Shown here in pieces: positions 10,697 through 55,066 of a DNA stretch of 64,000 nt (positions are counted from its first letter, which is position 1; each line of letters starts with the position of its first letter). This DNA comes from Heptranchias perlo (Eukaryota). The stretch lies in contig NC_090335.1 in assembly GCF_035084215.1 (NCBI RefSeq), forward strand, positions 56,172,001-56,236,000, written 5' to 3'. Made by a program: the position numbers and the translations under genes. Below the pieces are notes generated by a model. It did not search any database and had not been told where the DNA came from. It saw only the letters and a program-made list of their open reading frames with translations.

Positions 10697-12380
10697 GCCA
10701 AATGAGTACTTTGCATCAGCCTTTACCAAGGAAGAAGATGCTGCCAGTGTCTTAGTAAAGGAAGATGTAGTTGAGATACTGGATGGGCTAAAAATTGATA
10801 AAGGAGGTACTAGAAGGGCTAGCTGTACTTAAAGTAGATAAGTCACCCGTTCCGGATGGAATGCATCCTAGGTTGCTGAGGGAAGTAAGGGTGGAAATTG
10901 CAGAGATACTGGCCATAATCTTCCAAACATCCTTAGATACAGGGGTGATGCCAGAGGATTGGAGAATTGCAAATGTTACACCCTTGTTCAAAAAAGGGTG
11001 TAAGGATAAACCCAGCAACTGCAGGCCAGTCAGTTTAACCTCAGTGGTAGGGAAACTTTTAGAAATGATAATCGGGACAGAATTAGCAGTCACTTGGACA
11101 AGTGTGGATTGAGTATGGAAAGCCAGCACGGATTTGTTAAAGGCAAATCGAGTTTAAGTAACTTGATAGAGTTTTTTGATGAGGTAACAGAGAGGGTAGA
11201 TGAGGGCATTGCAGTTGATGTGGTGTATATGGACTTTCAAAAGGTATTTGATAAAGTGCCACATAATAAGCTTATCATCAAGATTGAAGCCCATGGAATA
11301 AGGGGGGTAGTAACAGCATGGATACAGAATTGGCTAAGTAACAGGAAGCAGACAGTAGTGGTGAACGGTTGTTTTTCGGACCGGAAGGAGGTGTACAGCG
11401 GTGTTCCCCAGGGGTCGGTACTAGGACCACTGCTTTTCTTGATATATATTAATGACTTGGACTTGGGAGTACAATTTCCAAATTTGCAGATGACACAAAA
11501 CTTGGAAGTGTAGTGAACAGTGAGGAGGATAGTGATAGACTTCAAGAGGATATAGATAGGCTGGTGAAAAGGGCGGACACGTGGCAGATAAAATTTAATT
11601 CAGAAAAATGCGAAGGAAGAACGAGAAGAGGCAATATAAACTAGAGGGCACAATTCTAAAAGGGGTACAGGAACAGAGAGATCGGGGCTACATGTGCACA
11701 AATCATTGAAAGTGGCAGGGCAGATTGAGAAAGTGGTTAAAAAAGCATATGGGATCCTGGGCTTTATAAACAGAGGCATAGAGTACAAAAGCAAGGAAGC
11801 CATGGTGAACCTTTATAAAACTGGTTCGATCACAACTGGAGTACTGTGTCCAGTTCTGGGCACTGCACTTCAGGAAAGATGTGAAGGCCTTAGAGAGGGG
11901 GCAGAAAAGATTTACTGGAATGATTCCAGGGATAAAGGACTTTAGTTACGTGGATAGCTGGGGTTGTTCTCCTTGGAACAGAGAAGGTTGAGAGGAGATT
12001 TGATAGAGGTATTTAAAATCATGAAGGGTCTAGACAGAATAGATAGAGAGAAACTGTTCCCATTAGCGGAAGGGTCAAGAACCAGAGGACATGGATTTAA
12101 GGTAATCGGCAAAAGAACCAAAGGTGACATGAAGAAAAGCTTTTTTACACAACGAGTGGTTATGATCTGGAATGCACTGCTGGACGGGGGAGCGGTGAAG
12201 GAAGATTAAATCATGGCTTTCAAAAGGGAACTGGATAAGTACTTGAAAGGAAAAAATTTGCAGGGTTATGGTAATGGGGCAGGGGAATGGGACTAGCTGG
12301 ATTGCTCTTGCATAGAGCCCGCACGGACTCGATGGGCCGAATGGCCTCCTTCCGTGCTGTAACCTTTCTATGATTCTATG
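10697..12380 (+). mobile_element. CR1 LINE, 5'-truncated and frameshifted, in the TRMT10C intron
   Basis: RT motifs RPVSLTSVVGK, QHGF, DFQKVFDKVPH, GVPQGSVLGP. 3' tail ttctatgattctatg. Confidence 0.93.
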
Positions 12381-26084: not shown

Positions 26085-27215
26085 AAAATTATTTATTCTT
26101 GGGATGTGGGCATTGCTGACAAGGCAGGGATTTATTGTCTATCCATAGGCTCCCTTGAGAAGGTGCTGGTGGGGCTTCTTAAACTGCTGCTGTCAGTGTG
26201 AAGGTGCTTCCACAATGCTGTTAGATAGACAGTACCAGGATTTTTTTTAATGACACAATCAGAGCTTTTTTCTATCTTTTTTTAATTTTTATTTTTAGGC
26301 CCCCCTTTTATAAGAAAGGGGGGGGGGGTTTAGGGTGTGTTTACGTGCAAAAAATCCCAAAAAAACAAAACAAGTGTCAAATTAAAATTTTATTATTTTT
26401 GTCCAGGATGCACACCAGCCCCTGCGGTGCCCACCGGTTGCGGAAAGCCTCAAGCGTTCTGGCAGACACCGCATGCTCCATCTCCAGGGCCGCCCGGGCA
26501 CGGAGAATTCCGCGGAAGAGAGGCAGACAGTCCGAGCGACCGCCCCCACGGGCCACGACCAACCTGGACCTGTGGATAGCCACCTTGGACAGGCCCAGGA
26601 GCAGGCCCACGAGGACGTCCACTGATCTGCCCGCCCCCCTCCTCACCGGGTGGCCAAAGATCAGGAATGTGGGACTGAGGTGCAGCCGGAACTTGAGGAG
26701 CAGCCCCCCCAAATAATCAAACAGGGGCTGCAGCCTCCTGCACCCAGTGAACAAAAGAAACATGGACTCGTCCAGGCCGCAGAAATTGCAGGCAGCCTGG
26801 GAGTCCGTGAAGTGGCGTAACCGCCTATTTGTCGCGACTGCTCTGTGCAACACTCTCCACCCCAGATCCCCAATGGCACACGGGAGGATTCCCTAGTAAA
26901 GAGCCCTCCACTGGGGGCCTCCGCCGGACAGCAGGATGGTACGCCAGGGCGTGTCCGGGCAAGAGACAAGGGCGAGGAAGTGGAGAGTGTGCAGGAGCAG
27001 CCAAAATACCAGGATTTTAACCCAATGACACTGAAGAAATGACAATATATGTCCAGGTTGGGATGGTGTGTGATTTGGAGGGGAACTCAGGTGATTGTGT
27101 TCCCATGCACCTGCTGCCCTTGTCCTTCTATGTGGTGGAGGTTGTAGGTTTGGGAGGTGCTGCAGTGCACCCTATAGCTGGTACACACTGCAGCCACGGT
27201 GCACTAGTGGTGGAG
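26085..27215 (-). mobile_element. 3' fragment of the same LINE family as 51140-54411, split by a Tx1/L1-like insertion
   Basis: 26085-26244 and 27007-27215 are reverse-complement homologous to about 54030-54405. Confidence 0.75.
26245..27006 (-). mobile_element. Tx1/L1-clade LINE 3' fragment with 12-bp TSD
   Basis: LHRAVATNRRL..CNFCGLDESMFLLFTGC is the C-terminal zinc-knuckle region (His decayed). GC/CpG-rich. TSD taccaggatttt at 26233-26244 and 27007-27018. Confidence 0.85.
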
Positions 27216-45189: not shown

Positions 45190-45425
45190 TAAGAGTTGTG
45201 ATTATGCGTATGGATACAGTAGTCTACAACCCAGAGGTTATGAGTTCAAATACCACCATAGCAAGTTCAGAAATTGAATTCAATATTTGTGGGCTGGCAT
45301 CTGAAAATAATAACCATGAAAACCCAACCCAACTTTGTGGTTGACTCTAGGGGCAATTGGATGGGCAGTAAATGCTGCCTTGCCAGTGTCTCCCACATCC
45401 CAAGAACAGATTTTTTTTTAAAAAA
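45190..45425 (+). mobile_element. Decayed SINE made of the tRNA-like head and 3' tail of the 51140-54411 LINE
   Basis: ccagaggttatgagttcaaataccacc (head) and tgtggttgactct joined directly to aggggcaattggatgggcagtaaatgctgccttgccag..cccacatccca (tail). Confidence 0.7.
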
Positions 45426-50619: not shown

Positions 50620-51139
50620 GTAAGAATATGATCATTTTACAAATCTGTTTGTTCAGGTATCTGTATATATTTCACCATTTTGTAGTAGTATATTCGTTCA
50701 TTATTTAAAAAATTGAACTGGCAGTGTTGAAGTGTGGTGGGTTGTTCAGTCAATCTGCTTAAAACACCAGGAGAAGGTAATTTTGATCAAAAAATGGTTA
50801 CAGGATATTACTTATGTTATGTCTCAAGCCGCTTAATGCCAAATGTGTGTTAAGTTAATCAACCTCAACTATAGTGAATCTGAAAGTGACAAATGCCTCT
50901 AACCTAGATCAGGAGTGAATGCCAGTATTAACCTTTCTACGCTTGTGTTGGTAAACGATTGTCCTTGACCACTGAGTTAATCCCTTAATTTCTTGTTGCC
51001 TGTTCTATAATACTCCCATAACTGTTTATCATTTTATTTTATTTCCTTGCAATACATTAGTTTATTTCATTTGCTTTGGTTGTCTTTTTAGCTTTCATGC
51101 CATTTCTATCCTTCATTTGTTTTTATAAGCTCTAATAGC

Positions 51140-54100
51140 ACGGGTGCGGTAGCATAGTGGTTATGTTACTGGACTAGTAATCCAGAGTCATGAGTTCAAA
51201 TCCCGCCACGGCATGGGGAATTTAAATTCCATTAATTAAATTCAATTAAATAAAATCTGGAATTAAAATACTAGTATCAGTAATGGTGGCCATGAAACTA
51301 CCGGATTGTCGTAAAAACCCATCTGGTTCACTAATGTCCTTTAGGGAAGGAAACCTGCCGTCCTTACCCGGTCTGGCCTATATGTGACTCCAGACCCACA
51401 GCAATGTGGTTGATTCTTAATTGCCCTCTGAAATGGCCTAGCAATCCACTCAGTTGTAAAATCTTGCTTAAAAAAAGTCACAAGAATAAAACCGGACGGA
51501 CCACCTGGCATCGGACCACTAGGGACACGACAAAGGCAAACCAAGCCCAGTCGACCCTGCAAAGTCCTCCTCACTAACATCTGGGGACTTGTGCCAAAAT
51601 TGGGAGAGTTGTCCCACAGACTAGTCAAGCAACAGCCTGACATAGCCATACTCACAGAATCCTACCTTACAGCCAGCATCCCAGACTCTTCCATCACCAT
51701 CCCTGGGTATGTCCTGTCCCGCCGGCAGGACAGACCGACCAGAGGTGGTGGTACAGTGATATACAGTCAGGAGGGAGTAGCCCTGGGAGTCCTCAACATT
51801 GACTCTGGACCCCATGAAATCTCATGGCATCAGGTCAAACATGGGTAAGGAAACCTCCTGCTGATTACCACCTACCGCCCTCCCTCAGCTGATGAATCCG
51901 TCCTCCTCTATGTTGAACACCACTTGGAGGAAGCACTGAGAGTAGCAAGGGCACAGAATGTACTCTGGGTGGGGGACTTCAATGTCCATCACCAAAAGTG
52001 GCTCGGTAGCACCACTGCTGACCGAGCTGGCAGAGTCCTGAAGGACGTAGCTGCTAGACTGGGCCTGTGGCAGGTGGTGAGCGAACCAACACGAAGGAAA
52101 AACCGACTTGACCTCGTCCTCACCAATCGACCTGTCGCAAATGCATCTGTCCATGACAGTATTGGGAGGAGTGACCACCGCACAGTCCTTGTGGAGACGA
52201 AGTCCCGTCTTCGCATTGAGGACACCATCCGACGTGTTAAATGGGATCGATTCAGAACAGATTTAGCAGCTCAAAACTGGGCATTCATGAGGTGCTGTGG
52301 GCCATCAGCAGCAGCAGAATTGTATTCCAGCACAATCTGTAACCTCATGGCCCGGCATATTCCTCACACGACCATTACCAACGAGCCAGGGGATCAACCC
52401 TGGTTCAATGAGGAGTGTAGAAGAGCATGCCAGGAGCAGCACCAGGTGTACCTAAAAATGAGGTGCCAACCTGGTGAAGCTACAACTCAGGACTACATGC
52501 ATGCTAAACAGCGGAAGCAACATGCTATAGACAGTGCTAAGCGATTCCACAACCAACGGATCAGATCAAAGCTCTGCAGTCCTGCCGCATCCAGTCGTGA
52601 ATGGTGGTGGACAATTAAACAACTAACGGGAGGAGGAGGCTCTGCAAACATCCCCATCCTCAATGATGGCGGAGTCCAGCAGGTGAGTGCAAAAGACAAG
52701 GCTGAAGCGTTTGCAGCATCTTCAGCCAGAAGTGCCGAGTGGATAATCCATCTCAGCCTCCTCCCGATATCCGCACCATCACAGAAGCCAGTCTTCAGCC
52801 AATTCGATTCACTCCACGTGATATCAAGAAACGGCTGAGTGCACTGGATACAGCAAAGGCTATGGGCCCCGACAACATCCCGGCTGTAGTGCTGAAGACT
52901 TGTGCTCCAGAACTAGCTGCGCCTCTAGCCAAGCTGTTCCAGTACAGCTACAACACTGGCATCTACCCGACAATGTGGAAAATTGCCCAGGTGTGCCCTG
53001 TCCACAAAAAGCAGGACAAATCCAATCCGGCCAATTGCCGCCCCATCAGCCTACTCTCAATCATCAGCAAAGTGATGGAAGGTGTCGTCGACAGTGCTAT
53101 CAAGCGGCACTTACTCACCAATAACCTGCTCACCGATGCTCAGTTTGGGATCTGCCAGGACCACTCGGCTCCAGACCTCATTACAGCTTTGGTCCAAACA
53201 TGGACAAAAGAGCTGAATTCCAGAGGTGAGGTGAGAGTGACTGCCCTTGACATCAAGGCAGCATTTGACTGAGTGCGGCACCAAGGAGCCCTAGTAAAAT
53301 TGAAGTCAATGGGTATCGGGGAAAACTCTCCAGTGGCTGGAGTCATACCTAGCACAAAAGAAGATGGTAGTGGTTGTTGGAGGCCAGTCATCTCAGCTCC
53401 AGGGCATTGCTGCAGGAGTTCCTCAGGGCAGTGTCCTAGGCCCAACCATCTTCAACTACTTCATCAATGACCTTCCCTCCATCATAAGGTCAGAAATGGG
53501 GATGTTCGCTGATGATTGCACAGTGTTCAGTTCCATTCGCAACCCCTCAAATAATGAAGCAGTGCGAGCCCGCATGCAAGCAAGACCTGGACAACATCCA
53601 GGCTTGGGCTGATAAGTGGCAAGTAACATTCGTGCCAGATAAGTGCCTGGCAATGACCATTTCCAACAAGAGAGAGTCCAACCACCTCCCCTTGACATTC
53701 AACGGCATTACCATCGCTGAATCCCCCACCATCAACATCCTGGGGGTTACCATTGACCAGAAACTTAACTGGACCAGCCATATAAGTACAGTGGCTACAA
53801 GAGCAGGTCAGAGGCTGGGTATTCTGTGGTGAGTGACTCACCTCCTGACTCCCCAAAGCCTTTCCACCATCTACAAGACACAAGTCAGGAGTGTGATGGA
53901 ATACGCTCCACTTGCCTGGATGAGTGCAGCTCCAACAACACTCAAGAAGCTCGACGCCATCCAGGACAAAGCAGCCCGCTTGATTGGCATCCCATCCACC
54001 ACCCTAAACATTCACTCCCTTCACCACCGGCGCACAGTGGCTGCACTGTGTACCATCCACAGGATGCACTGCAGCAACTCGCCAAGGCTTCTTTGACAGC

Positions 54101-54411
54101 ACCTCCCAAACCTGCGACCTCTATCACCTAGAAGGACAAGGGCAGCAGGTACATGGGAACAACACCACCTGCATGTTCCCCTCCAAGTCACACACCATCC
54201 TGACTTTGAAATATATCGCCGTTCCTTCATCGTCACTGGGTCAAAATCCTGGAACTCCCTTCCTAACAGCACTGTGTGAGAACCTTCACCACATGGACTG
54301 CAGCGGTTCAAGAAGACGGCTCACCACCACCTTCTCGAGGGCAATTAGGGATAGGCAATAAATGCTGGCCTCGCCAGCGATGCCCACATCCCATGAATGA
54401 ATAAAAAAAAA
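51140..54411 (+). mobile_element. Near full-length single-ORF LINE (APE endonuclease + RT, CR1-group-like) with tRNA-derived 5' head; disrupted copy
   Basis: APE motifs TNIWGL, DIAILTESYL, YRPPS, GDFNVHH, LDLVL, SDH. RT motifs KAMGPDNIP, RPISLLS, DIKAAFD, GVPQGSVLGP, FADD. Stops at 51846, 53270 and 53830, plus several frameshifts. 3' end atgaatgaataaaaaaaaa. Confidence 0.92.
51146..51212 (+). promoter_or_regulatory. tRNA-Thr(AGT)-derived internal Pol III promoter forming the LINE head (not a functional tRNA gene)
   Basis: A box tagcatagtgg (51150-51160), anticodon arm ctgga-CTAGTAA-tccag, B box gagttcaaatccc. The acceptor stem pairs poorly. Confidence 0.8.
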
Positions 54412-55066
54412 GCCTACCAATTGCAATCAGAAGGCATTGCAGTATCTTATGTTCACTTTACCTTACAGGATAGTCTCCAACAGCTAGCGTGCCATCAGAG
54501 GCAACCAGGTAGTATAAAAGAGGCAGCACCAGTACTGACTGAGACAATGAAATTCTCTTCGAGAGTTAGTGTTTCTGGCTGCATTTGCATTGTGTCCATC
54601 TTTTGATCTGGGTGAGGCTGTTATCAGCTCACATATTCGGGCATGCAATGTGCTTTAGCCATTGCTGACCTGTACGGATCTTCCACAACATTGGCAACGG
54701 TCTGTGACTTTTTAGTAAACATATGGATTTTTGTGATGCTTGTGCGTGAGTAGATCCATTATTTATCTAAACATCCCTACAGTATGAAGAGGGAAAACTT
54801 GACAGCAGGGGCTCATATTACAAAACTGGAATGGATGTTGTTCCATAATGCAAAGAGGGCATTACGCTCAGCAGGAACACGACTGTAGCTGAGAATTGTG
54901 CTGAACTGCACTAAAACTACTAATAACTGCAGTTTCTTGAAATACTAAATCCTTTTAATGAACGCAGACTTTTATTTTTCCTAAGTCCTTTTTTTGGTTT
55001 ATTTTAACAGTATTCTCACTAATTCCTTTTTAAAAATGTGTTTGTGTTGCACTTTGCCTACAACAG

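Follow-up and report, generated by a model that had tools for sequence, protein, structure and literature searches.

We found that a tRNA-like head is the fixed 5′ end of the Zenon retrotransposon family in the host genome, and that the sense strand of this family is depleted of T-runs, with the depletion specific to runs of three or more T. From these features, it appears probable that this family is a coding LINE that RNA polymerase III (Pol III) transcribes, its deletion derivatives being SINEs. LINEs are normally coding elements transcribed by Pol II, whereas SINEs are non-coding and transcribed by Pol III; a natural, successful coding element driven by Pol III would break this split. The copy described first lies in a 64,000-nt stretch of Heptranchias perlo DNA (hereafter the window), and its features are as follows.

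51142..54411, + strand: full-length, decayed elasmobranch Zenon LINE copy; 3.1% of its sites differ from the column-wise commonest letter
51143..51213, + strand: tRNA-derived head, short form (ARAGORN, Rfam, copy alignment)
51150..51160, + strand: A box-type sequence, 8 nt downstream of the family's 5′ start
51169..51185, + strand: anticodon arm
51194..51202, + strand: B box-type sequence
51217..51270, + strand: A/T-rich linker of varying length, longest shared T-run T3 (copy alignment)
51271..51456, + strand: conserved 5′ UTR body of about 190 nt, common to the SINE-like deletion forms; a 34-codon upstream ORF and an AUG at 51404 both lie within it
51457..54348, + strand: single APE-RT reading frame, broken in this copy (Pfam, intact-copy comparison), with APE motif I at 51573, FADD at 53505, and the stop codon at 54346..54348
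54349..54411, + strand: 3′ UTR with AATAAA (54357), part of a predicted stem-loop, and an A9 tail
54403..54411, + strand: the A9 tail
54601..54604, + strand: first T4 of the downstream flank, where a Pol III transcript of this copy could first stop

The window copy is dead: its frame contains stop codons at 51846, 53270, 53830, and 54094 and, against a natural intact copy, frameshifts near 51524, 52718, 53318, and 53579. An earlier sequence-only reading had described the element as an APE-RT frame that lacks an ORF1 and ends in an A tail, and the APE and RT pieces recognized by Pfam, together with the A9 tail, bear this out; its proposed start at 51140, however, was corrected to 51142, where the family begins in the copy alignment. 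The predicted fold of 54320–54411 has a z score of −2.4, whereas the head and body fold no better than shuffles (z −0.6, −1.5, and +0.6). No clear target-site duplication was found around it. The window also holds older 3′ fragments of the same family at 27009–27215 (−), 26089–26244 (−), and 45351–45406 (+), which are 74–81% identical.

The sequence-only reading could not tell whether the element had been described. The family itself has been published as elasmobranch Zenon (Stuart et al., 2026; PMC13343379), but its head and T-run depletion appear to have gone unremarked: "tRNA" and "polymerase III" have no match in the main text of that study, nor does "tRNA" in the readable supplement. Stuart et al. 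reported Zenon in five sharks and rays (CarCar, HypSab, RhiTyp, ScyCan, and SquAca_Zenon) as elements with >84% mutual identity, no ORF1, and a poly-A tail that is said to be unique to Zenon among CR1-group elements (PMC13343379). The host family has this poly-A tail and one APE-RT ORF without an ORF1; elasmobranch Zenon (single APE-RT ORF, A tail, about 3.3 kb) is the same family, with no difference in kind in the published description. Within the first 400 nt, motifs of the window copy match all seven elasmobranch Zenon consensus rows of PMC13343379. By eye, all seven rows, from five species, start with the tRNA-like head and body, and SquAca_Zenon-1 is nearly identical to the host copies over its first 400 nt, a likeness to which no percentage is attached. 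The same visual comparison shows an intact A box in all five species and an intact B box in all but the stingray, whose consensus has an imperfect one, while the spacer between the boxes differs. The seven rows contain no T4 in their first 400 nt, whereas two hagfish rows and one coelacanth Zenon row are headless and have T4 runs there. A whale shark preprint (10.1101/443036), as far as it was available, names CR1-Zenon only.

More distant relatives were also sought. The closest proteins among 1.84 billion representatives are 36–40% identical and of single-ORF length, including lancelet and moth proteins. A quick tree of 74 RT rows placed the query with the lancelet and moth proteins in a 37-row set (SH-aLRT 98), with three other LINEs of the host outside it and no row named Zenon. 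The ESM Atlas and PDB returned only generic APE-RT and L1/R2 matches, and no relative was found among viral contigs. A profile of the 5′ region had no match in 80 metagenome relatives (best E 4.7), and an upstream A and B box pair was found in none of these 80, of which only 17 had the ORF start with >400 nt upstream.

In the 3.25-Gb host genome, exact matches to a 22-nt motif across the UTR–ORF border number 6,703; another 22-nt motif, in the tail, has 70,496 matches, short forms included. The first 40 junction matches on one contig (C1) were taken as an unbiased set, chosen so as not to select by similarity: the head is complete in 27, the start falls inside the head in 5, and it falls behind the head in the remaining 8, which are ordinary 5′ truncations. 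Thirty-four of the 40 extend at least 500 nt into the ORF, and in two the head and body are joined directly to the tail. Approached from either side, the result is similar: with the ORF as anchor, 21 of 29 loci extend to the head, and with the head as anchor, 26 of 29 continue directly into the ORF. A junction unique to the window copy had been named as evidence against the proposal; instead, it is family-wide and old, being present in older copies too. As an account of the junction, a chance SINE or tRNA retrocopy beside a truncated LINE was accordingly rejected, with that junction present in thousands of copies, in older subfamilies, and in five other species.

Among 47 full-length copies, three have an open frame of >900 codons, and 39 have a longest terminal A-run of 7–11. 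The natural copies L154 and L168 each carry a 973-codon open frame with PF03372/PF14529 and PF00078. Upstream of the APE-RT frame, the copies examined contain only short ORFs of at most 83 codons and no ORF1. Variants found in at least eight copies comprise 30 synonymous and 14 non-synonymous changes, against 326 and 881 for private variants; the replicating lineage is therefore under purifying selection. A consistent target-site duplication was not found, with 3 of 21 copies reaching at least 5 nt versus 2.1% of shuffled pairs. Separately, four shark gene models named as unrelated host genes (P0001, P0008, P0011, and P0012) contain ORF pieces that are 78–82% identical, either by annotation carry-over or by exonization.

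The head had been read as tRNA-Thr(AGT)-like. Its A box, anticodon arm, and B box were located, and ARAGORN calls tRNA-Thr(AGT) at 51143–51213. Because its Rfam tRNA score (24.6 bits) is below the gathering score (29), the head is tRNA-like rather than a tRNA gene. The Thr label is uncertain: the head matches the host tRNA-Thr(AGT) at 47 of 75 aligned positions and tRNA-Gln at 42–45 of 72, an older head fits tRNA-Gln better (45–48 versus 44 for Thr), and such match counts do not separate the two parents. Complete copies have one starting GGG in common, which precedes the A box by 8 nt, and this 5′ end corresponds to tRNA position 1. Both boxes fit the box consensus in 27 of the 47 full-length copies as trimmed (A box in 31, B box in 42). 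None of the 11 B-box columns differs between young and old copies, compared with about 11% in neighboring segments, a conservation that is not significant alone. In many copies, 21 nt of the anticodon arm (51169–51189 in window numbering) are duplicated in tandem; the spacing from A to B box is 43–44 or 64–66 nt, and both forms occur in young and old copies. Elsewhere in the host genome, a region of contig C38 (G000:C38:2560993-8862823) holds dozens of tRNA-Gln(TTG) arm matches on one strand, many about 3.1 kb apart; it is a large tandem tRNA gene array, and two sites on C38 were confirmed as tRNA-Gln.

The window has no sense run of four or more T (T4+) between one at 51120 and one at 54601. 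At 3,481 nt, no other gap in the window is as long; it is 3.7 times the length of the next (929 nt). The run scan thus agrees with the earlier observations that sense TTTT is missing over about 3.27 kb and first appears at 54601, and that AAAA runs are common (20 A4+ runs were counted). The CR1 at 10697–12380, offered as a control, does have sense T4 runs, but only five in 1,684 nt, fewer than the "many" reported. The earlier estimate of about five expected runs is borne out when base composition is used (4.7, P 0.011), but the expectation drops to 2.7 (P 0.045) when dinucleotides are preserved and to about 2.1 (P 0.08–0.10) under synonymous codon shuffles of two intact copies. As a sole statistic, zero T4 is weak.

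The copies and the makeup of the runs are more telling. T4 is absent from 35 of the 47 full-length copies, and the 16 runs in the remaining copies fall at 14 columns, at none of which a run is the commonest state. T4+ at the expected rate in a consensus had been named as counter-evidence, and no T4 site is common to the 47 copies. The unbiased C1 set has 8 T4 in 114.5 kb, and old copies have 10 versus 30.6 expected. In three intact frames, which are 98–99% alike and count as one observation, there are 4, 7, and 5 runs of T3+ versus about 12.5 expected (P 0.0003–0.018), whereas exact TT is not depleted (73–75 versus 71–74 expected); A-runs and C-runs are not depleted either. None of 30 TTN codons comes after a T-ending codon, though such codons make up 20% of all. 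The TTT:TTC ratio is 3:16, against 38% T-ending among other NNY codons. The depletion reaches amino acid choice: Phe makes up 1.95% of residues versus a median of 4.24% in 117 relatives, only one of which is lower.

Other LINEs behave differently. Forty-five other LINE segments of the host have 96 T4 versus 67 expected, or 4.09 per kb against 0.10 per kb in the family, a control that is conservative because a few segments may be old Zenon members. Eighty metagenome relatives have a median observed/expected ratio of 1.21 for T4 and 1.05 for T3 (lowest 0.58) against a T3 ratio of 0.38 in the family, and only one of them, a 1.5-kb piece, lacks T4; these control LINEs are mostly not Zenon and are T-richer (0.25 in the host genome and mostly near 0.30 in metagenomes, versus 0.20 in the family). 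The shortest Pol III terminators in transfection tests are TTTT (65%) and TVTTT (20–50%) (PMC8466645). No TVTTT common to the 47 full-length copies was found, and the joint depletion of T4 and TVTTT is significant in one of the three intact copies (P 0.013, 0.27, and 0.11). Six older copies carry T4–T6 just behind the head, at the border of the T3 and the A-run, likely due to decay; T extension with age has been described for other SINEs. With TTT reduced, TT unchanged, and Phe halved, the proposed selection against T-runs is supported by a loss specific to runs.

Translation of an uncapped RNA is the weak step of the Pol III account. No in-frame AUG before residue 250 was found in the two 973-codon frames, and an upstream AUG in the body shares the frame of the ORF in 19 of 43 copies of the A-run type, against 1 of 48 copies of the younger, ACG-type subfamily. 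A −1 frame that overlaps the ORF start (51404–51575) spans 76–83 codons in young copies; by eye, it looks conserved in the published shark and ray Zenon consensus starts, where it has its own AUG, and no classical slippery site was seen by eye around it. A start by frameshift or reinitiation through this −1 frame is possible.

The family also gave rise to short, SINE-like forms. An older junction motif has 1,169 matches in the host genome, and of the first 20, 17 are joined to the same tail at deletion points that vary, one continues into the ORF, and two do neither. A pattern for old copies with the ORF leader has 50 matches, and 5 of the 11 loci examined contain head plus ORF (70–86% identical, BLAST). 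The varying deletion points and a retained piece of the ORF leader make repeated deletions within a headed LINE the more probable origin of these forms, rather than the capture of a ready-made SINE. Young head+body+tail forms are rare in the host genome, where one such junction has two exact matches and the C1 set contains 2 in 40; L185, L186, L218, and L237 are young deletion loci of this kind. Assembled contigs from four runs, representing four organisms, reach every one of the 30 bins of the element and include head+body-to-tail joints, but show neither strand, start, nor polymerase and were not used for expression. The joint occurs in many contigs of one run (X21), and expansion of the SINE form would seem to be confined to certain lineages. 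A search with a diverged fragment for a sister family returned the young family. As to the short and non-coding character of SINE2 elements, only the deletion forms fit; the full element is 3.3 kb long, with an ORF under purifying selection.

Transcription by Pol III with read-through to a T4 in the flank is the simplest account because the 5′ end lies at tRNA position 1, the boxes are kept in sharks and rays, and the run-specific loss of T extends to amino acid choice. TFIIIC would bind the A and B boxes, and Pol III would start at the first G, read 3.3 kb without a terminator, and stop at the first flank T4, which lies a median of about 140 nt past the element end. For its translation, the uncapped RNA would depend on unconventional initiation (reinitiation, frameshift, or non-AUG), and the APE-RT protein would reverse-transcribe the RNA that encodes it, priming at the short templated A tail. 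A single template switch onto a tRNA, or onto an RNA derived from one, is the probable source of the head, and repeated internal deletions would afterward have given the SINEs. Purifying selection on the ORF argues that the copied RNA or its locus supplies the protein. For the wider proposition, we put the chances at about even: that through the whole of shark and ray history a major autonomous retrotransposon has been a Pol III gene, whose 3.3-kb uncapped RNA, driven by an internal promoter of the tRNA type, itself serves as the message for a 970-residue enzyme, whose codons and Phe content have been reshaped against terminators, and which yields SINEs by simple deletion.

Three other explanations were weighed. 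If Zenon were transcribed by Pol II as other LINEs are, the head would be a captured, vestigial, or structural 5′ cap region, and T-runs would be avoided for another reason, such as cryptic splice acceptors, U-rich cleavage elements, or RNA decay. LINEs are generally Pol II products that need translation (PMC5786205), and Zenon has an AATAAA near its 3′ end, an A tail, and, in one subfamily, an AUG in frame with the ORF; the weakness of zero T4 alone also speaks for this explanation. We nevertheless regard it as unlikely, since the host's other LINEs, which face identical constraints from Pol II, show an excess of T4, and A-runs and C-runs in Zenon are spared. Moreover, the 5′ end lies exactly at tRNA position 1, the boxes persist in five species while the spacer changes, and AATAAA occurs twice in the first 350 nt of most host copies, which would be awkward for a Pol II RNA, although the second site is AATGAA in the published consensus.

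Labor might instead be split, with a Pol III RNA being copied while capped read-through RNAs made by Pol II, from the same copy or from others, supply the protein; the full-length element would then behave as a giant SINE fed in trans. This would account jointly for the head, the T-run depletion, and the missing AUG; there are thousands of near-full-length copies but only 3 of 47 with frames >900 codons, and the deletion forms show that mobilization in trans works. Pure supply in trans, however, would not maintain the purifying selection seen in shared variants, by which the copied lineage's own ORF mattered, and the 34 young full-length copies against two young deletion forms among 40 are what cis-preference predicts; we consider this division quite improbable. 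Mere coincidence, with a truncated LINE gaining a SINE or tRNA retrocopy as its neighbor and base composition producing the T4 gap, can draw on the low sense T content (0.20) and on the P values of 0.045–0.10 under the stricter shuffles. It is extremely unlikely, however, given that the junction recurs in thousands of copies, in older subfamilies, and in five other species, and that the depletion is specific to T-runs of at least three. Transcription of the coding element by Pol III thus remains our preferred reading.

No paper on a Pol III-driven coding LINE or on a tRNA-like head of Zenon was found in the literature searched, the scope of which ended short of subscription journals, Repbase Reports, and Dfam. 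An mRNA made by Pol III was reportedly described in 1995, and a Pol III claim for human L1 is said to date from that year as well; neither is relied on here. If the preferred reading is true, Zenon would be the first natural, long, protein-coding Pol III unit of a vertebrate found by our search, and two questions would become testable: by what means an uncapped RNA is translated while retaining cis-preference, and whether deletion from a headed LINE can give birth to SINEs. A compact, 3.3-kb, putatively self-promoting LINE with natural intact copies is also an easy subject for assays. If Pol II is used instead, the head and the T-run depletion would still need explaining, and the annotation of a family with >70,000 tail matches changes.

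Among known systems, R2 too is a LINE without an ORF1; a polymerase that is not Pol II produces its RNA, which is translated in the absence of the usual cap or AUG. R2, however, lacks its own promoter: Pol I transcribes it together with rRNA, and a ribozyme releases it. It also inserts site-specifically and uses another endonuclease; the likeness to Zenon lies in the missing ORF1 and in the non-Pol II transcription and unconventional translation proposed here. In chimeric retrocopies of small RNAs and LINEs of the U6-L1 type, the junction varies from copy to copy and does not propagate. A one-off chimera of this kind was rejected for the shark element, in which a single junction recurs in thousands of copies and in five other species.

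Lepidopteran Zenon is likewise a single-ORF, 3.3-kb LINE with an A tail and repeated forms deleted to 5′ plus 3′ parts (Han et al., 2019; PMC6740152), and a moth protein is 34% identical to the host ORF over 658 residues. Unlike in the shark element, no tRNA-like head is visible in the lepidopteran 5′ ends shown, and Persaeus, a deletion derivative of lepidopteran Zenon, is said to lack tRNA homology and a Pol III promoter (PMC6740152). By eye, the hairpin at the end of the body (51433–51456) resembles one after GAAGT in the lepidopteran 5′ UTRs shown, a likeness without support from a profile search; if it is real, the body would be an ancestral Zenon UTR to which the head alone was added. 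In MetaSINEs, a 66-nt Meta domain directly follows a tRNA(Thr)-like head (PMC4824008); such an origin of the body was rejected, as by eye it bears no likeness to BivaMeta-SINE1 or BivaMD-SINE1. Compared with Deu-SINEs, the tail here is the element's own, whereas that of SacSINE1 is L2-2, and by eye there is no likeness to the partial Deu domain available. RTE-1_DAn and related elements are LINEs said to contain a tRNA-like sequence matching many SINE2 elements (PMC5786205); they are a possible precedent from another clade, known from one sentence that gives neither position, box integrity, nor polymerase. The short forms here have the architecture of tRNA-headed bipartite SINEs, in which a tRNA head is followed by a 5′ and a 3′ part of a LINE (Kojima, 2018; PMC5786205). 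In the model given there, the head joins an already deleted, non-coding LINE; in sharks, it sits on a full-length coding element, and SINEs can therefore arise by deletion alone.
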